Part shown: positions 1-6,600 of the stretch, one piece after another
How positions within the stretch are numbered: the stretch's first letter is position 1
Layout: each line of letters begins with the position of its first letter
Assembly: GCA_964465245.1 (NCBI GenBank)
Contig: CAYXHQ010000057.1
Span: 1 to 6,600, forward strand
Direction: 5' to 3'
Length of the DNA stretch: 6,600 nucleotides
Source of the DNA: an uncultured Muribaculaceae bacterium
Lineage (GTDB): Bacteria; Bacillota_I; Bacilli_A; RF39; UBA660
Translations under genes and position numbers: made by a program
Notes under the pieces: generated by a model
The model's input: the letters and a program-made list of their open reading frames with translations, nothing else
Databases searched by the model: none
Told to the model about the DNA's origin: nothing

Positions 1-80
1 TAGTATGATAAAGAAAAAAATCCGTAAAAAACGGACTTTAGTCTAAAAATTTACGAATTACTTTGTCAACAGTCTGTAAA

Positions 81-107
81 GACTATAATAAATTATAGTC
101 TTTTTTT
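81..107 (+). terminator. Rho-independent terminator for an upstream, off-window + strand gene
   Basis: A perfect 8-bp stem gactataa (81-88) / ttatagtc (93-100) with a 4-nt loop taaa is followed immediately by T7 (101-107). Confidence 0.6.
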
Positions 108-108
108 G

Positions 109-167
109 TGACTAATTTAAAATACATTCTTTGACTAATTTAAAGTGATGCTATTGACTTATTTAAA
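109..167 (+). repeat. Three direct 13-nt repeats TGACTAATTTAAA with an exact 23-bp period
   Basis: tgactaatttaaa occurs at 109-121 and 132-144 (identical copies). tgacttatttaaa occurs at 155-167 (1 mismatch). The starts at 109, 132 and 155 are spaced exactly 23 bp apart. A fourth, interrupted copy, tgac-cggggggg-ttaaa, lies at 202-218 and overlaps the -35 box. Confidence 0.7.
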
Positions 168-200
168 TCAATCTTAAGAAATTATAATATTCGTTAAGTA

Positions 201-229
201 TTGACCGGGGGGGTTAAATAAGATATAAT
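201..229 (+). promoter_or_regulatory. Sigma70-type promoter of the DGR target gene/operon
   Basis: TTGACC (201-206), a 17-nt spacer (207-223) and TATAAT (224-229). This lies 21 nt upstream of the ATG at 251, with an aaggtaggaaag Shine-Dalgarno region at 236-247. Confidence 0.65.
207..213 (+). repeat. G7 homopolymer inside the promoter spacer (candidate slipped-strand phase-variation tract)
   Basis: ccgggggggtt: seven consecutive G at 207-213, the only long G/C run seen in an otherwise extremely AT-rich window. It lies exactly between the -35 and -10 hexamers. Confidence 0.6.
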
Positions 230-250
230 CTACTTAAGGTAGGAAAGTAT

Positions 251-1858
251 ATGAAGAATAAAAAATTAAACATATTGTTTATTGCTATAATTACATGTTC
301 TATATTTATTTCGAGTGTTTTACTTCAAGCGATAAGTTATAATACAGTAACATTCAATGAAAAAGACACCCTAATAGATAGATACTATAGCGACGTACTT
401 GAACCAAGAAAGAGCGTATTGGTAGAAAGTGCTCCTTTTACATGCACAGGTACTACTAAAATAAGTTGTACTGGCAGTGATAATATTTCTTCAATTTCAG
501 CATCAGAATATAATGCAATCGGAAGAAGGTCTTATCTAACAACGGATGACCCATATTGGGTAACTGGAGATGAAACTGGGACTACTGCAAATAGTGTTAC
601 TATTGATGGATTAAAAGAATTAGCAAAAGAAAATTTATCTGGTGCAAGAGCATCTGTTTATATAAAAGAAAGTACTAAACTTACTGGAAGTGGCACTAGA
701 AGAGACCCTTATAGAATAGAAGAATACATTCCTCCTGTTCCAGAACAAGATGTTAATATTTTAGCAATATATATTGATTGGAATAGTGATGGAGACTATG
801 AAGATAGAGTTGGAGCAGAAGACGAGTCAGTTGCCAGAACTTCTATTCCATCAGATAAAAGTTATGTATTAGATGAGTCTATGACAAATTGTACTAATGG
901 AGAAACTGTTAAATGGAATACGGTATCTAAGTCAATTACTATATCACCCTTAGAAGGACAAACAAGTTGTAGAGTATATCTAAAAAATGTTACAAATTAT
1001 CTAGTAAATGCAATCGCAGAACCTTATAAAACAAATACTGCACAAGGTTCACTGTATAATGAATTTGTAGGCAAATATGTAATAATGGATCCAAGCGTAT
1101 GTAATAGTGCAGGTGTATGTGGACTAATACCTGATCCATACAATAATTTAGCTGTTGCAAATCCACAGTCTGCTTGTAGCTTAAATACTACGGGAGGATT
1201 AACCGATGAATCCACTGGTAACTGTAATGTCAACATAACATATTGTAATTCCTATCCTTCATATCAATCATCCCTTAGAAATTGGAGAATAGTATATGTA
1301 GAAGATTTATACGAACCAACTGATATAACATACAGTAATAAAAATTTAGAAGCAAATATATATATAGTCTCATCTAGAAGTGTAGAATGTAACACTTACA
1401 AAACAAATCCTGCAAATACTATAAGTAATCTTAATAATGCAGCAAAAAAATACTGTAATAATGCAATAGTAGATGGAGGAACTTGCAATAGTACAAACGT
1501 ATATGCATTTAATGGAACAGATTTTGAAAGAATATCAAAGTATACAAGAGGAAGACTAAATTTAGCATCTAACACATTCATCACACTTACTAGTTGCCGG
1601 GATGCCTCAAGCGCTCAATGTTTTAATAGTTCAAAAGATGCAAATAATTTTAATTCGATAGTAAACAATGGCGAATATTATTGGTTTGCTAGTGCAATTG
1701 GCTCTTACGCTGTCTATACCTGGATTCCGGACGCCATGCGTGTGACCAGCAACAACACAAACCCGTTTGGTCTTCGCCCTGTCCTAAAGCTAAAATCTGG
1801 TATCAAATATACGGGTGGAACAGGTACTGCGGAAGATCCGTATAAAATAATACCTTAA
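251..1858 (+). CDS. DGR target (variable) protein; secreted or surface Cys-rich protein with a diversified C-terminal ligand-binding domain
   Basis: A 535-aa ORF with an RBS. The N-terminus MKNKKLNILFIAIITCSIFISSVLL looks like a signal peptide or membrane anchor (a possible non-canonical lipobox at IIT-C). There are many Cys residues. The C-terminal codons 480-505 form the VR matching the TR at 3058-3146. The ...NPFGLRPVLKLK ending resembles the last strand of C-type-lectin-fold DGR variable domains, but the family cannot be assigned by eye. Confidence 0.9.
   Translation: MKNKKLNILFIAIITCSIFISSVLLQAISYNTVTFNEKDTLIDRYYSDVLEPRKSVLVESAPFTCTGTTKISCTGSDNISSISASEYNAIGRRSYLTTDDPYWVTGDETGTTANSVTIDGLKELAKENLSGARASVYIKESTKLTGSGTRRDPYRIEEYIPPVPEQDVNILAIYIDWNSDGDYEDRVGAEDESVARTSIPSDKSYVLDESMTNCTNGETVKWNTVSKSITISPLEGQTSCRVYLKNVTNYLVNAIAEPYKTNTAQGSLYNEFVGKYVIMDPSVCNSAGVCGLIPDPYNNLAVANPQSACSLNTTGGLTDESTGNCNVNITYCNSYPSYQSSLRNWRIVYVEDLYEPTDITYSNKNLEANIYIVSSRSVECNTYKTNPANTISNLNNAAKKYCNNAIVDGGTCNSTNVYAFNGTDFERISKYTRGRLNLASNTFITLTSCRDASSAQCFNSSKDANNFNSIVNNGEYYWFASAIGSYAVYTWIPDAMRVTSNNTNPFGLRPVLKLKSGIKYTGGTGTAEDPYKIIP
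1686..1777 (+). other. DGR variable region (VR)
   Basis: Aligns with the TR at 3058-3146. Every substitution is at a TR adenine and non-A positions are 100% identical. It ends in a shared 14-nt A-free block, cgtttggtcttcgc (1764-1777). Confidence 0.92.
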
Positions 1859-1870
1859 TGGAAAAAAGGA

Positions 1871-1904
1871 ATTCACTAAGTGGGCTTTTAGTCCACTAGT
1901 GAAT
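1871..1904 (+). other. Inverted repeat/hairpin just after the target-gene stop codon (candidate DGR target-site cruciform or attenuator)
   Basis: attcactaagtgg (1871-1883) pairs with ccactagtgaat (1893-1904): a 12-bp stem with one bulged A and a 9-nt loop gcttttagt. No T-run follows on the + strand. An A6 run precedes it, which would be a T-run on the - strand. Confidence 0.5.
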
Positions 1905-1912
1905 GAGTAAAA

Positions 1913-2314
1913 ATGATTGATGATATAAAAAAAGTGGAAAATAATAGTTTGATAATTATACTAGATTTAGATAAATATATTGTTTATTATAATGATATAT
2001 ATATTCTATACTATTTCTTTAACTATAAATATTTTGTTAATAAAAAAGGCAAGTATTTAACAAATAGTTTAAAATACTTAAATAGAGTAATAAAAATATT
2101 AAATGAATATAAAATTAATTATTTAGTATTAGAAAAAAGAAATAATTATAACACTTTAATGAATAAAAAATTTGATGATAATTTTTATAAATATTATATA
2201 AAAAAAGGAAAGACAAAATATAAAAGAAAAAAAATAATTAATAATATGTATAAATCTCTTAAGAAAATTGATAATGTGAGAATACTAAAGATAATAGAGG
2301 AATGTAATTTATGA
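1913..2314 (+). CDS. Small MutS N-terminal-domain-like DGR accessory protein, divergent copy 1
   Basis: A 133-aa ORF paralogous to the next ORF. DKYIVYYN-DIYILYYFFNYK...TNSLKYLNRVIKILNEYKINYLV aligns with GKFYITFNKDAYIVGGIFNYK...INSLAKVINKLENMKINYIV. Its stop overlaps the next start (ATGA at 2311-2314). Confidence 0.6.
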   Translation: MIDDIKKVENNSLIIILDLDKYIVYYNDIYILYYFFNYKYFVNKKGKYLTNSLKYLNRVIKILNEYKINYLVLEKRNNYNTLMNKKFDDNFYKYYIKKGKTKYKRKKIINNMYKSLKKIDNVRILKIIEECNL

Positions 2315-2706
2315 AAGAAAAATATGAAAAAATTAAAAATGAGTATTTAGAATATGTTGTTTTTATTAAAAGCGGAAAATTTTATATAACTTTTAATAAA
2401 GATGCATATATTGTTGGTGGGATTTTTAATTATAAAATAATAAATTCTAAAGTTGGATTTCCTATTAATTCTTTAGCAAAGGTAATTAATAAATTGGAAA
2501 ATATGAAAATCAATTATATAGTTGATAATGATGAAAAGAAAAATTTTAAAAATTTAAATAATTATAATGATTGTTATAAAAGATGTTGTGAATTACAAGA
2601 GAAAAGAAAAAATATTGAAAATATAGTTAAGTGTTTAAATAAATCTATAAATAGTGATGAATTTAATATAATTATTAAAAAAATAAATGGTATTATTAAT
2701 GAATAA
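2311..2706 (+). CDS. Small MutS N-terminal (mismatch-binding domain I)-like DGR accessory protein, copy 2
   Basis: A 131-aa ORF with a gagga RBS about 11 nt upstream. KYEKIKNEYLEYVVFIKSGKFYITFNKDAYIVGGIFNYKII..KVGFPINSLAKVINKLENMKINYIV parallels E. coli MutS [68 protein letters not shown]. It has no ATPase or other MutS domains. Confidence 0.65.
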   Translation: MKEKYEKIKNEYLEYVVFIKSGKFYITFNKDAYIVGGIFNYKIINSKVGFPINSLAKVINKLENMKINYIVDNDEKKNFKNLNNYNDCYKRCCELQEKRKNIENIVKCLNKSINSDEFNIIIKKINGIINE

Positions 2707-3052
2707 TGAAGATAATTTTAAAATTTTTTATTATATCAAAAGATTAATTAAATATTATGATAAAATATTGATTAATTTTCCACATAAAGAATTAGAATTA
2801 AAAAAAATATTAGTTAATGAATTACATTTAATACTTAAATTAAGTTACTTGGCAAATGAATCTAAAAATGATATCAGATATAATTATCAATGTGAAATGG
2901 TTGCTTCTATTAAGTTTGTATGTTTTATAACAGATGAATGTGAAGAAAAGTGTATTATATCTAAAAAACAATATTTATTGATAGGAGAGAATCTCAACAA
3001 TATTTTGAAGTATTTAAAAGGATGGATGAAATCCTGTTTAAAGAAGGTGTAG
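2699..3052 (+). CDS. avd: Avd (accessory variability determinant), four-helix-bundle protein
   Basis: About 117-121 aa and predicted all-helical. LINFPHKELELKKILVNELHLILKLSYLANESKN and IGENLNNILKYLKGWMKS parallel Bordetella-phage bAvd IAQSIPRKHGVAREMFLKCLLGQVELFIVAGKSN and IAEVGRILGSWIAR. It sits immediately upstream of the TR, the canonical avd position. The start is either ATG 2699 (overlapping the upstream stop at 2704-2706) or ATG 2687. Confidence 0.8.
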   Translation: MNNEDNFKIFYYIKRLIKYYDKILINFPHKELELKKILVNELHLILKLSYLANESKNDIRYNYQCEMVASIKFVCFITDECEEKCIISKKQYLLIGENLNNILKYLKGWMKSCLKKV

Positions 3053-3057
3053 AATTG

Positions 3058-3146
3058 TAAATAGTGCAAATGACTCAAACAATGTCTATAACTGGAATCC
3101 GAACAACATGAATGTGAACAACAACACAAACACGTTTGGTCTTCGC
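3058..3146 (+). other. DGR template repeat (TR)
   Basis: Begins 6 nt after the avd stop. Read in the VR frame it is aat agt gca aat gac tca aac aat gtc tat aac tgg aat ccg aac aac atg aat gtg aac aac aac aca aac acg ttt ggt ctt cgc. That gives 13 AAY codons out of 29, and a TGA stop follows immediately. It is non-coding, and the - strand ORF 2887-3231 over it is spurious. Confidence 0.92.
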
Positions 3147-3294
3147 TGATTTCAAATATATGTTTGAATATAATAACTATGTGTTTTATATGAATACGTA
3201 TTTGAACAAATTTTATTCCTTGATTTATCAAAAATTAAAAAAGCAAATTATGGTGTTAGTAAATTAATTTGAAAAGGCTAATAATTTAAAAATC

Positions 3295-3333
3295 TTTTTT
3301 ATTAAAAAGTATTAGGTACTTTTTAATAAGGAA
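3295..3333 (+). promoter_or_regulatory. Long hairpin in the TR-RT spacer that overlaps the RT Shine-Dalgarno sequence
   Basis: The perfect 11-bp core attaaaaagta (3301-3311) / tactttttaat (3317-3327) has a loop ttagg. It can be extended by tttttt (3295-3300) pairing with aaggaa (3328-3333), including G-U pairs, which covers the aagga RBS 8 nt upstream of ATG 3341. Confidence 0.5.
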
Positions 3334-3340
3334 TATTTTT

Positions 3341-4276
3341 ATGAAAAGAATCAACAATATTTATGAAAATTGTTATAATATAAATAATATTTTATTATCT
3401 TTTGATGAAGTTATCTATAAAACTAAAAATAAAAAAGAAGTAAATAAAGCATTATCATTAAAACCAATATATATTTATAATGCATATAATGTTTTGAAAA
3501 ATAGAATATATGCTCCTGGAGATTATATCCATAAAATAATATATGAGCCTAAAAAAAGAGATATTTATTATCAAAATATATTTGATAAACTAATTAATAA
3601 TATAGTATGTAGGAATATACTTATACCTTGTTTAGAACCCTCTTTAATCAATACTTCTGTAGCAAGCAGAAAAAACATGGGTACTCATAAAGGATTAAAA
3701 TTATATTTTGAATATAGAAGGATAATGAATAAAAAATATAAAAAGTATTATATTTTAAAACTTGATATTAAAGGTTATTATAAACACATATCAAAAGAAG
3801 TATTATATAAAAAAGTGTGTAATAAAATTAAAGATAAAGAAGCATTAAAAATAATTTATAACATTATTTTTTCTTTTAAAGAAAGTGGGATTTCTATTGG
3901 AAATATGTCTAGTCAAATATTTGCGTTATATTATCTAAATGAAATTGATCATATGATAAAAGAGGAGTTTAAAATAAAGTATTATATAAGATATCAAGAT
4001 GATTTTATTTTAATGCATAATAATTTAGAAAATTTAAAAAAAGTATTAAATGTTTTAAAAAAAGAATTATTAAATATAAATTTAGAAATAAATAATAAAA
4101 CTAAAATATATTCAAACAAAGATAATATGATTTTTTTGGGTGTAAACAAGTTTGGAAAAAGAAAAATTAAATTTAACAAAATAAAGAATATTAAAAAATC
4201 TTATATGAATGAAAATCTAAATTTAAATCATTACATATTTTTAAAAAAATATTACAAAGAAAAATTGTTTTATTGA
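3341..4276 (+). CDS. DGR reverse transcriptase
   Basis: A 311-aa ORF. RT motifs present are IYEPKKRDIY (1), SVASRKNMGTHKGL (2a), YILKLDIKGYYKHIS (3), GISIGNMSSQIFALYYLNEIDH (4, with the DGR-diagnostic GxxxSQ at nt 3896-3916), YIRYQDDFIL (5, YQDD at 3992-4003) and MIFLG (7). It has no maturase/X, endonuclease or retron-type features. Confidence 0.93.
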   Translation: MKRINNIYENCYNINNILLSFDEVIYKTKNKKEVNKALSLKPIYIYNAYNVLKNRIYAPGDYIHKIIYEPKKRDIYYQNIFDKLINNIVCRNILIPCLEPSLINTSVASRKNMGTHKGLKLYFEYRRIMNKKYKKYYILKLDIKGYYKHISKEVLYKKVCNKIKDKEALKIIYNIIFSFKESGISIGNMSSQIFALYYLNEIDHMIKEEFKIKYYIRYQDDFILMHNNLENLKKVLNVLKKELLNINLEINNKTKIYSNKDNMIFLGVNKFGKRKIKFNKIKNIKKSYMNENLNLNHYIFLKKYYKEKLFY

Positions 4277-4301
4277 TAGAATAATATTTAAATGTTAAAA
4301 T
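4273..4301 (+). promoter_or_regulatory. Possible ffh promoter (extended -10)
   Basis: TTGATA (4273-4278), a 17-nt spacer and TAAAAT (4296-4301) preceded by TGT (4293-4295). Such matches are easy to get by chance in AT-rich DNA. Confidence 0.3.
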
Positions 4302-4325
4302 AAGATATAGAAAAAAGGTGAATAT

Positions 4326-5633
4326 ATGTTTGAGAATTTAAGTGATAAGTTAAGTGGAATACTTAGTAAAGTTAAAGGGTATGGTGTAATTACTGAGGAA
4401 AATATTAGTGAAAGTTTAAGAGAGATTAGACTTTGTTTATTAGGCGCGGACGTTAACTATACTATTGTTAAAGAGTTTGTTGAGAATATTAAAAATAAAG
4501 CTTTGGGAGAAGAAGTTAAAAAAAGTTTAAGACCTGGAGACTTATTTGTTAAAATTGTTAAAGATGAACTTGTTAGTTTGCTTGGAGGTGACTCTAGTCC
4601 TTTAGAAGTAACTAAGAAACCCACCATTGTTATGCTTGCTGGTCTTCAAGGAAGTGGCAAAACTACTACTATTGGTAAACTTGGTGCGATGGTTCGCAAG
4701 AAACATTATAAGAAACCAATCTTTATTGCATGTGATATTTATAGACCAGCTGCGGTGAACCAACTTAAAGATATTGGTAGAAGTCTAGATATTGAAGTAT
4801 ACTCAGAAGACTCTAAAGACGCAGTGCAAATTGCTAAGAATGGAGTGGAGTACGCTAAAAACAATGGATTTGATTATATACTAATAGATACTGCTGGTAG
4901 ACTTCAAATAGATGATACTCTTATGCGAGAGTTAGTAGATATAGAAAGTAGTGTAAGTATAAATGAAACATTACTTGTAATAGATGCAACTATGGGACAA
5001 GATGCAATTAATGTTATAAATGGATTTAATGATAAAATTAAACTTACTGGGTGTATTTTAACAAAGATGGACGGGGACACTAAAGGTGGAGTTGCTTTGT
5101 CTCTACGCTATTTAACACATGTTCCAATTAAGTTTATAGGTGACTCTGAAAAATTAGATGGATTAAGTGAATTTGATCCTACTAGAATGGCATCAAGAAT
5201 AATAGGAGAGGGTGACTTAATGTCTATTATAGAAAAAACTGAATCTGTAATAGATATGGATGAAGCAGCAAAAACAGCTAAAAACTTTGAAAAAGGAAAA
5301 TTTGATTTAGAAGACTTTTTAATTACTATGAAGCAAATAAAGAAAATGGGACCACTTGAGAATTTGTTAAAAATGGTTCCTGGTGCTTCTAAGATGGGTT
5401 TAAACAATGTAAACATAGACCCAAAAATGATGGCGAGAACTGAAGCAATAGTTTTATCAATGACACCATATGAAAGAAGAAACCCTAATGTTTTAAAAGC
5501 TACTAGAAAGATAAGAATATCTGCGGGTTCTGGTGCCTCTGTTGAAGAAGTTAATAGATTACTTAAGCAATTTGAAATGATGCAAGGTATGATGAAAAAA
5601 GTTAAATCTGGTAATTTTAAGATGCCTTTTTAA
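4326..5633 (+). CDS. ffh: Signal recognition particle protein Ffh (SRP54)
   Basis: A 435-aa ORF with an aaggtga RBS. It has an N domain, GTPase motifs GLQGSGKTTT, DTAGR and TKMDGD, and a Met-rich M domain (LENLLKMVPG..., FEMMQGMMKK). Confidence 0.97.
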   Translation: MFENLSDKLSGILSKVKGYGVITEENISESLREIRLCLLGADVNYTIVKEFVENIKNKALGEEVKKSLRPGDLFVKIVKDELVSLLGGDSSPLEVTKKPTIVMLAGLQGSGKTTTIGKLGAMVRKKHYKKPIFIACDIYRPAAVNQLKDIGRSLDIEVYSEDSKDAVQIAKNGVEYAKNNGFDYILIDTAGRLQIDDTLMRELVDIESSVSINETLLVIDATMGQDAINVINGFNDKIKLTGCILTKMDGDTKGGVALSLRYLTHVPIKFIGDSEKLDGLSEFDPTRMASRIIGEGDLMSIIEKTESVIDMDEAAKTAKNFEKGKFDLEDFLITMKQIKKMGPLENLLKMVPGASKMGLNNVNIDPKMMARTEAIVLSMTPYERRNPNVLKATRKIRISAGSGASVEEVNRLLKQFEMMQGMMKKVKSGNFKMPF

Positions 5634-5707
5634 AAAATAATTAAAAAACTTTCATTAAAAAAAAGCGTTTTAAGGAAAAAATGGCGATAATATATATAGA
5701 GGGATAT

Positions 5708-5739
5708 AAAGAAACTCGAAAAAAGTTTCTTTTTATTTT
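5708..5739 (+). terminator. Probable rho-independent terminator downstream of ffh
   Basis: A 9-bp stem aaagaaact (5708-5716) / agtttcttt (5724-5732) with a 7-nt loop is followed by ttatttt. The stem is AT-rich and therefore weak. Confidence 0.5.
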
Positions 5740-5760
5740 GAAAGAAAGGAATCGTTATTT

Positions 5761-6600
5761 ATGGAAAATTTAAAATCAAAAAATTTTAGTGAAAGCATAT
5801 TTGATAATATTAAGCATATCGATGAGTATGGAAATGAGTATTGGTCTGCAAGAGAATTGCAAAAAGTGTTGGAGTATGCTCAATGGAGAAGGTTTGAGAG
5901 TGTTATCAATCGAGCAAAAGAAGCGTGTACGAATAGTAAAAATACTAAAATTGACCATTTTGCCAAGGTTGGCAAAATGGTTCAAATAGGTTCAAATGCT
6001 AAAAAGGAAATTATAGACTATAATTTGTCAAGATATGCATGCTATCTTATTGTGCAAAATGGAGACCCAAAAAAAGATGTAATAGCTTTAGGACAAACTT
6101 ACTTTGCTATTCAAACAAGACGTCAAGAATTGAATGAAATGGAATATAAGAGTTTATCAGAAGATGAAAAAAGATTATATAGAAGAAAGCAAACAAAAGA
6201 CGGAAATAAAATATTATACTCTACTGCTTTAAAAAAAGGGGTAAAAAACTTTGATAAGTTTACTAATTATGGATATAAGGGACTGTATGGTGGTGAGACT
6301 GCTGCAGATATAGCGAAAAGAAAAAAACTTAGATATAGAGAAGACATTCTTGATAATATGGGAAGTACAGAATTAGGTGCTAATATATTTAGAATTACGC
6401 AAACTGAAGAACTATTAAAAACACAAAAAGAAATAAGTGAGAAGATTTCAAATGATACACATTATAAAGTTGGAACTGCTATAAGAAATACAATAAAAAA
6501 GTTAGGCGGTACTATGCCAGAAAAGTTACCTACGCCAAATAAAAGTATAAAAGAATTAGAAAAAGTAAGAACTAACAATAAAATTATAAAAAATAAATAA
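5761..6600 (+). CDS. dinD: DNA-damage-inducible protein D (DinD) family protein
   Basis: A 279-aa ORF with an aaagga RBS. EYWSARELQKVLEYAQWRRFESVINRAKEAC...DHF...IGSNAKKEIIDYNLSRYACYLIVQNGDPKKDVIALGQTYFAIQTRRQE matches the conserved DinD N-terminal pattern. The stop TAA falls at 6598-6600. Confidence 0.8.
   Translation: MENLKSKNFSESIFDNIKHIDEYGNEYWSARELQKVLEYAQWRRFESVINRAKEACTNSKNTKIDHFAKVGKMVQIGSNAKKEIIDYNLSRYACYLIVQNGDPKKDVIALGQTYFAIQTRRQELNEMEYKSLSEDEKRLYRRKQTKDGNKILYSTALKKGVKNFDKFTNYGYKGLYGGETAADIAKRKKLRYREDILDNMGSTELGANIFRITQTEELLKTQKEISEKISNDTHYKVGTAIRNTIKKLGGTMPEKLPTPNKSIKELEKVRTNNKIIKNK

Follow-up and report, generated by a model that had tools for sequence, protein, structure and literature searches.

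The chief unsolved step in the biology of diversity-generating retroelements (DGRs) is how mutagenised cDNA replaces the variable repeat (VR) and escapes mismatch repair (MMR). The same step holds back engineered mutagenesis by DGRs and retrons, for which mutS or mutL has to be disabled. Among the DGR accessory families, MSL (MutS-like) is the only one with an obvious link to mismatches. Here, we ask why a DGR on contig CAYXHQ010000057.1 of an uncultured bacterium (assembly GCA_964465245.1; positions 1 to 6,600 of the forward strand, a stretch of 6,600 nucleotides referred to as the window) carries two short MutS-like genes in tandem, whether both are genuine, and what they might do for the element. 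The two open reading frames (ORFs), ORF-A (1913..2314, + strand; 133 aa, pI 9.7) and ORF-B (2311..2706, + strand; 131 aa, pI 9.2), sit inside a complete DGR in the order target gene with VR, hairpin, ORF-A, ORF-B, Avd (accessory variability determinant), template repeat (TR), and reverse transcriptase (RT). The MSL family is known, and a second gene for a MutS domain I protein is commonplace among related loci. What appears distinctive, judged by sequence comparison, is the tandem, translationally coupled pair with one member shorn of its DNA-wedge residues, together with a family-wide Phe/Glu pattern and a set of paralogue classes.

Identity and predicted fold of ORF-B and ORF-A

ORF-B matched the Pfam family MutS_I (PF01624) with 34.4 bits (E 2.8e-8), above the gathering score of 20.6 bits. 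MutS_I was the sole MutS-family match in Pfam, and the NCBIfam MutS equivalog scored 15.7 bits against a cut-off of 480. Domains II-V of MutS, including the ABC ATPase and the clamp, are absent from the 131- and 133-aa proteins, and scans of PHROGs and NCBIfam returned no family for ORF-A or ORF-B. The AlphaFold model of ORF-B, with 11 homologues in the alignment, reached a mean pLDDT of 84 and a pTM of 0.73; it comprises a beta-alpha domain (residues 1-72) followed by long helices at 85-112 and 116-130, which form a helical hairpin (85-130). In a Foldseek search of the PDB, the best 50 matches were MutS, MSH3, or MSH6 chains (best E 1e-4), and the model superposes on domain I with a root-mean-square deviation (rmsd) of 1.3-1.5 A over ~70 residues (69-80 columns). 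Among these matches were 1wb9, 1wbb, and 1wbd, structures of MutS Glu38 mutants. The sequence-profile search of the PDB was weak: the family profile found nothing at E <= 0.01 among PDB chain sequences, where MutS appeared at E 0.3-0.8 in the correct register, and the N-terminal 75 aa alone retrieved zero MutS chains. It is thus Pfam and the predicted structure that support the fold assignment. Homologues of ORF-B adjoin avd in other DGRs. Taken together, the profile match and the model indicate that ORF-B belongs to the known MSL family, with a stand-alone MutS domain I followed by a family-specific two-helix hairpin. Its gene lies immediately before avd, to which it is translationally coupled. 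A kinship of this hairpin with Avd was ruled out (hhalign probability 0.2%).

An initial annotation of the window, made from the letters alone, had read ORF-B as a stand-alone MutS domain I without clamp, lever, or ATPase, in agreement with the Pfam score, the predicted fold, and the length reported above. The ORF coordinates and the motifs it quoted (GKFYITF, GFPINSL, and KINYIV in ORF-B; DKYIVYY, FNYK, NSL, and KINY in ORF-A) are likewise correct. Of the checks it named, structure prediction supported both ORFs, both models matching MutS/MSH chains in the PDB, and the MutS_I profile of Pfam supported ORF-B only: ORF-A gave no match to MutS_I at E <= 1.

ORF-A is nevertheless related to the family by several other measures. 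BLASTP aligned it with ORF-B at 43% identity over 51 aa (E 6e-6), and hhalign aligned it with the family profile over 117 columns (probability 97.4%, E 1e-11). A family hidden Markov model (HMM) built without the window sequences scored ORF-A at 43.9 bits, compared to a maximum of 3.4 bits for 2000 shuffles of ORF-A and at most 1.1 bits for the other window ORFs, including the equally A+T-rich Avd and RT; the match is therefore no artefact of composition. The predicted structure of ORF-A, from an alignment made up of members of the Avd-adjacent MSL1 subfamily, has a pLDDT of 93. Among the PDB matches listed by Foldseek, all were MutS or MSH proteins (best E 1.2e-3), most of the best ones superposing at ~1.4 A over ~72 aa. 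These sequence comparisons and the model argue that ORF-A is a real, very divergent paralogue of the same MSL1 subfamily, and the earlier description of copy 1 as a degenerate paralogue is borne out by BLASTP, hhalign, the window-excluded HMM, and the shared predicted fold.

Against the profiles of the three paralogue classes described below, ORF-A scored 43.9 bits with MSL1 and 27.6 bits with MSL3, a weak match, and had no match to MSL2. We rejected the idea that ORF-A is an orthologue of the RT-adjacent MSL2, as it is the MSL1 profile that matches and the RNNY segment of MSL1 is shared. This segment (LxxRNNY, predicted to form two extra beta-strands) is kept in ORF-A and deleted in ORF-B. 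ORF-A does not resemble ORF-B more than it resembles MSL1 proteins of other genomes, and among 5.8 billion proteins we found no close homologue of its own. Since ORF-B is no closer than other MSL1 proteins and such a homologue is absent, ORF-A is an old or fast-evolving duplicate.

Divergence of this degree raises the question of whether ORF-A is a gene at all. It could instead be a tandem copy of an MSL gene in decay, without a function of its own, ORF-B alone mattering to the DGR, a reading that we consider unlikely. It would account for the loss of the family-invariant Gly, Phe, G-F-P, and Glu (LE) positions, for the failure of Pfam MutS_I, which matches 29/29 MSL1 proteins, for the missing homologue, and for the fact that zero other surveyed loci carry a copy at the position of ORF-A. 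Breakage would, however, be expected in a relic so diverged. ORF-A is at most ~33% identical to any relative, and yet the hydrophobic pattern, the RNNY segment, and the C-terminal helices are retained. At 14% G+C, stop codons should occur about once in 8 codons, and a frame that stays open for 133 codons, as here, has a chance probability of ~1e-8. Its codon-position base signature is the same as in ORF-B and RT, its stop codon overlaps the ORF-B start by 4 nt (ATGA), and it is identical in L001, an independent second assembly of this locus (assembled by Logan from run SRR8925823). Because the frame is open, the codon bias shared, the ATGA overlap present, and the sequence unchanged in the second assembly, we prefer to read ORF-A as a functional paralogue that lacks the wedge rather than as a relic.

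The MSL family, its paralogue classes, and the wedge residues

The initial annotation had mentioned a functionally uncharacterised MutS-like accessory ORF noted in large DGR surveys. This is MSL, one of the four accessory gene classes that Wu et al. 2018 defined for DGRs: it occurred in 16/372 DGRs, encoded proteins of 112-283 aa (pI 7.2 +/- 1.7), and was always found with avd and never with HRDC, an arrangement termed 'Architecture D' (PMC5758913). The same study reported three DGR RTs with a MutS_I-like C-terminal extension (PMC5758913). Msl has also been mentioned for three Bacteroides DGRs (10.1101/2024.11.15.621889) and in a review (PMC8632793), and a 2026 preprint refers to 'many MutS-like homologs' in DGRs (10.64898/2026.07.21.739853). 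ORF-B fits the description by Wu et al. of small stand-alone MutS domain I proteins in DGR cassettes with avd and without HRDC, and both window ORFs (131 and 133 aa), located between target and avd, fall within the reported size range. In the literature searched, MSL is described as a single accessory gene, whereas the window has two in tandem, and the upstream copy, ORF-A, is unlike described MSL in lacking the wedge Phe and escaping Pfam. The pI values of 9.2 and 9.7 for ORF-B and ORF-A also differ from the reported mean, although pI is a descriptive and non-defining property.

The MutS-like gene as such is thus not the novelty that had been implied, as the family is not only known but large. 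Searching 1.84 billion representative proteins with the profile returned 1537 clusters (50% identity) at E <= 1e-3, 527 of them at E <= 1e-10; the proteins of the best 150 clusters are all short (~76-187 aa, mostly 130-155 aa). A scan of one genome per species yielded 71 loci, nearly all from uncultured gut Clostridia, Bacilli, or 'Clostridium sp. CAG'. ORFs were called in all of them and screened with HMMs of MSL, Avd, and RT. Most of these loci have the order target/VR - MSL - Avd - TR - RT, and according to the gene calls the MSL stop codon overlaps the avd start in relatives. VR/TR pairs were confirmed in four related loci.

Three paralogue classes emerged, an Avd-adjacent, an RT-adjacent, and a pre-Avd long form, which are undescribed in the literature searched. 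MSL1, which contains ORF-B, adjoins avd and is basic (pI 9.0 +/- 0.7). MSL2 (~140 aa, pI 7.4 +/- 1.4) lies on the far side of the RT gene, usually directly upstream on the RT strand, and overlaps the RT start by 4 nt in locus L005; 5/5 tested MSL2 proteins match Pfam MutS_I. It was seen in L005, L011-L013, L020-L023, L038, L073, L075, L082, and others. MSL3 (185-240 aa, pI 9.7) immediately precedes avd in a sub-clade with MSL1 and TR at the front, as in L082 with the order target/VR - MSL1 - TR - MSL3 - Avd - RT. Its wedge loop contains an insertion, and a long insert precedes its G-x-P turn; it was found by the MSL1 profile only (46-58 bits), being unseen by Pfam. The MSL3 genes are located at 2678-3268 in L045, 7227-7955 in L050, 2031-2654 in L066, 1597-2154 in L071, 1561-2169 in L077, and 7120-7677 in L082.

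Paralogues were counted in the 57 species-level loci that contain an RT with no less than 700 bp of sequence past it. One canonical MSL1 was present in 27/57 loci, MSL1 with MSL2 in 21/57, all three classes in 4/57, MSL1 with MSL3 in 2/57, and MSL1 together with a further MutS_I gene upstream of the target in 2/57; the remaining locus (1/57, L046) had one weak MSL1-like match only. At least two MutS domain I genes thus occur in 29/57 loci, in at least four layouts, which argues that a second module has been repeatedly selected. The pair had been presumed undescribed: two or three paralogues turn out to be common, but the tandem layout with a Phe-less copy was found in no other locus. The window itself lacks MSL2, as ffh directly follows the RT gene.

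Some of the surveyed loci deserve separate mention. In L084, an ORF at 101-532 looked like a natural MSL::Avd fusion, a 'Rosetta stone' for their interaction. We rejected this in favour of decay: an in-frame deletion joins MSL1 residues 1-~77 to the C-terminal part of Avd, and the RT is split into two ORFs (907-1864). At L008/L033 (GCA_947631785.1), a truncated MSL1 of 112 aa (6001-6339) follows a target-like gene of 375 aa, Avd and RT are absent within 6 kb, and a YhcG/DUF1016 nuclease gene stands in place of avd; the locus is probably a DGR remnant. In some loci, RT lies on the strand opposite to TR, and MSL2 is on the far side either way. The RT strand varies relative to MSL1-Avd-TR among relatives, and an invertible switch for RT orientation was considered and dropped, as the flanking inverted repeats sought were not found.

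Which residues of the mismatch-contacting surface are kept? We aligned the family with E. coli and Taq (Thermus) MutS, both reference sequences having been entered by hand. The wedge Phe (E. coli Phe36) is present in 71/72 MSL1, 29/29 MSL2, and 6/6 MSL3 proteins and in ORF-B, and is Lys in ORF-A. Gly34 shows the same distribution in MSL1 (71/72), MSL2 (29/29), and ORF-B, with Lys in 6/6 MSL3 proteins and Leu in ORF-A. The position of Glu38, in contrast, is never Glu: it is Y/N/H/Q/K in MSL1, I/L/V in MSL2, D/R/N in MSL3, and Ile in both ORF-B and ORF-A. An intact Phe-x-Glu motif (F36, E38 in E. coli) is therefore absent from ORF-A, ORF-B, and every MSL1, MSL2, and MSL3 protein aligned. The G-I-P turn (70-72) reads G/A-F-P in MSL1, G-F-P in MSL2 and ORF-B, G-V/I-P in MSL3, and T-N-S in ORF-A. 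Asp43 is near-invariant family-wide, and ORF-A retains it, as it does the hydrophobic core and the C-terminal helices. In the survey, ORF-A alone has jointly lost the wedge-loop positions Gly34, Phe36, and GFP. From these alignments, MSL proteins keep a near-invariant wedge Phe and never the Glu of Phe-x-Glu. The alignment with the MutS references also agrees with the earlier reading of a kept Phe and a Glu-to-Ile replacement in copy 2, and places Lys at the Phe position of copy 1.

A putative shield for DGR mismatches and its alternatives

In MutS, Phe36 stacks on the mismatched base, and Glu38 together with the ATPase licenses repair; Glu38 is required for authorising repair and not for binding as such. 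Against this background, we tentatively propose, with a confidence that falls somewhat short of even, that MSL is a mismatch-binding shield on the DGR ribonucleoprotein and ORF-A its non-wedging partner. MSL proteins would travel with the particle of Avd, RT, and TR RNA, and the Phe wedge would bind the densely mismatched duplex of cDNA and parental VR, or a mismatched RNA/cDNA hybrid. Lacking Glu38, clamp, and ATPase, MSL would occupy mismatches and not license MutL-dependent repair, and new VR alleles would thereby be shielded from an all-or-nothing reversion by host MutS. ORF-A might serve as a structural partner of ORF-B that does not wedge, or it might substitute for the RT-adjacent MSL2 that is absent here. 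As a partner, it would follow a logic comparable to that of the MutS subunit or MSH2, in which domain I makes no mismatch contact. An association of MSL with the RT complex is supported by its constant co-occurrence with avd and by the three RTs carrying MutS_I extensions (PMC5758913). In a Bacteroides DGR without Msl, deletion of host mutS increased VR mutagenesis 5- to 10-fold in an all-or-nothing manner (10.1101/2024.11.15.621889).

The comparison with MutS and MSH proteins (E. coli and Taq MutS, human MSH2-MSH6 and MSH2-MSH3) illustrates how much of a mismatch sensor would be left. The predicted domain I fold is the same (1.3-1.5 A over ~70 residues), and ORF-B shares the G-x-F-Y wedge loop, Asp43, and the G-I/F-P turn. 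MutS dimers and MSH heterodimers are asymmetric pairs with the wedge on one domain I only. Unlike them, the window proteins lack the connector, the lever, the clamp, the ATPase, and the Glu of Phe-x-Glu, and have an added C-terminal helical hairpin; they are not repair enzymes, unlike MutS/MSH.

An opposite role is suggested by the same homology. MSL could recruit host MMR and so convert the cDNA/VR heteroduplex toward the cDNA strand, and the all-or-nothing outcome with MutS indeed indicates that MMR sees the VR heteroduplex (10.1101/2024.11.15.621889). We regard this as very improbable, given that the MutL-contacting connector and the ATPase are absent from proteins of 131-133 aa with MutS_I as their sole MutS-family Pfam match, that Glu38 is absent, and that in the only system examined so far, DGR output goes up, not down, upon loss of mutS.

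A positive cofactor is somewhat easier to reconcile with the data, and we would call it doubtful rather than remote. MSL would then assist cDNA synthesis or integration: it might hold mismatched primer-template ends for extension by RT once a base has been misincorporated opposite adenine, or stabilise the pairing of mutagenised cDNA with the VR in homing. The tight genetic coupling of MSL1 to avd and of MSL2 to the RT gene, the RT-MutS_I fusions (PMC5758913), the conserved Phe wedge, and the basic character of MSL1 (pI 9.0 +/- 0.7), which resembles that of Avd, are all in line with such a role. On the other hand, well-studied DGRs, namely that of Bordetella phage BPP-1 and the active one of Bacteroides ovatus, work without MSL (PMC5758913; 10.1101/2024.11.15.621889), and the sequences offer nothing to separate a cofactor from a shield. 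More generally, shielding, a cofactor role, recruitment of MMR, and, for ORF-A, decay are inseparable by sequence alone.

Several points weigh against a shield with ORF-A as partner. In the literature searched, neither function, nor binding, interaction, or genetics of MSL has been reported. ORF-A is without an orthologue anywhere among the 5.8 billion proteins, it has shed family-invariant surface residues as a decaying copy would, and its confident model leans on an alignment of MSL1 sequences. Pairing of ORF-A and ORF-B in a heterodimer is only a conjecture, and about half of the related DGRs have a single MSL in the flanks examined, so that a second subunit is not obligatory. Moreover, MutS dimers are held together by the ATPase and C-terminal domains and not by domain I; any pairing of ORF-A with ORF-B would therefore need the helical hairpin.

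In its most far-reaching form, the shield proposal would have DGRs of gut Bacillota encode a modular, multi-subunit 'mini-MutS', with MSL1 at Avd, MSL2 at RT, and MSL3 or ORF-A as an extra module, in which, for this window, an asymmetric heterodimer of wedge-bearing ORF-B and wedge-less ORF-A clamps the hyper-mismatched cDNA/VR heteroduplex and hides it from host MutS-MutL. This form is speculative and, in our estimate, decidedly unlikely; if true, it would amount to an element-encoded anti-MMR device that decides on the survival of diversification events. Should the simpler shield proposal be true, directed evolution with DGRs could rely on a protein of 130 aa in place of host MMR knock-outs; should it be false, the locus adds a further member of a catalogued accessory family and one odd duplicate. 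The rule 'Phe kept, Glu never', the coupling to Avd and RT, and the multiple copies provide testable predictions and residues to mutate. Suppression of MMR is known to raise the recovery of cDNA-templated mutations in engineered DGR and retron editing (10.64898/2026.07.21.739853; PMC12875486; PMC8632793). The dominant-negative MutL variant (E32K) and mutS deletion are functional analogies only, as they are laboratory manipulations of host MMR and not element-encoded proteins.

Small single-domain MutS domain I proteins also exist in uncultured gut phages. The best viral fold matches came from BFVD (E 6e-6 to 6e-5, 1.3-4.5 A, 74-81 columns), namely A0A8S5PL02 (74 aa, 1.3 A), A0A8S5PPT8 (153 aa), and A0A8S5L9N2 (84 aa). 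No relatives of the MSL subfamily of the window turned up when 50,697 phage records were searched by tblastn and IMG/VR by a pattern scan. With no phage or IMG/VR relatives, a phage origin of the element was dropped, the Bro-N-domain gene downstream of it being insufficient evidence.

Layout and activity of the DGR

The target gene (251..1858, + strand) encodes 535 aa with a hydrophobic segment at the N-terminus and was assigned to no family in the Pfam, PHROGs, and NCBIfam scans. The VR (1690..1777, + strand), identified by alignment to the TR, lies inside its 3' end and encodes the C-terminal end of the protein. The TR (3062..3146, + strand) was found by the same repeat alignment; the two differ by 15 substitutions, 15/15 of them at TR adenines, and by a 3-nt insertion (one extra codon) in the VR. 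Avd (2687..3052, + strand), whose start overlaps the end of ORF-B, was identified by Pfam bAvd (E 2.8e-4) and the PHROG 'Avd protein of DGR' (E 1.7e-6), while the match to NCBIfam DivGenRetAVD (E 6e-6) was under the cut-off. An alternative avd start, the ATG at 2699, was chosen by the gene call in L001. The RT (3341..4276, + strand; 311 aa) matched Pfam RVT_1 with 62.6 bits. Its nearest relatives are RTs of MSL-containing DGR loci, the closest being those of L057 and L064, both single-MSL elements. The DGR setting given in the initial annotation is thus well founded in the adenine-specific TR/VR differences, Avd, and RT. HRDC had no match among the seven large window ORFs scanned against Pfam, and likewise in the related loci.

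Directly after the RT follows ffh (4326-5633; Pfam, PHROGs, and NCBIfam), and a Bro-N-domain gene (E 2e-10) extends from 5761 to the window end (6600), where it runs off the edge. Bro-N-domain genes are typical of prophages and mobile elements. The G+C content of ORF-A, ORF-B, Avd, and RT is 14-20%, compared to 32-33% for the target gene and the flanking ffh; the base composition of the cassette is thus distinct even from that of its own target gene.

Between the target stop codon and ORF-A, a hairpin at 1871..1904 (+ strand) has an 11-bp stem with one bulged A and a DNA fold energy of -10.1 kcal/mol (z = -4.9), and 0/200 shuffles were as stable. DGRs use a stem-loop downstream of the VR, and this hairpin occupies the same position. 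L084 has a similar stem at the same place (bases 74-105): GTCACTAAGAAGG...CTTCTAGTGAC. At the sequence level, the pattern CACTA...TAGTG for this post-VR hairpin matched the window alone among the loci scanned, and an Rfam scan of the window gave no match at gathering thresholds. The spacer between TR and RT holds a 25-nt inverted repeat (3287-3341) with 88% complementarity and a loop of 5 nt; it ends at the start codon of the RT gene and may serve as a terminator or attenuator or belong to the 3' structure of the TR RNA.

The comparison with L001 indicates that the element is at work. Across 4.8 kb, the two assemblies differ only in four scattered SNPs and in the VR block, where dense differences, including a 9-nt insertion, are confined to 1696-1764 and to TR-adenine positions. 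Because the VR differs between two assemblies at TR-adenine sites, the DGR is active and diversifies its target with the present gene set. ORF-A and ORF-B are invariant in a population whose DGR target varies.

The VR also varies in length. Relative to the TR run GTG AAC AAC AAC ACA AAC ACG, the window VR has one additional NNC codon, and the L001 VR (1611-1707) has four extra codons (+12 nt compared to the TR, +9 nt compared to the window). Every one of the extra codons is adenine-mutagenised and falls within the run of AAC repeats. RT slippage or re-priming on these repeats looks like the source, giving the VR in-frame length variation besides substitutions.

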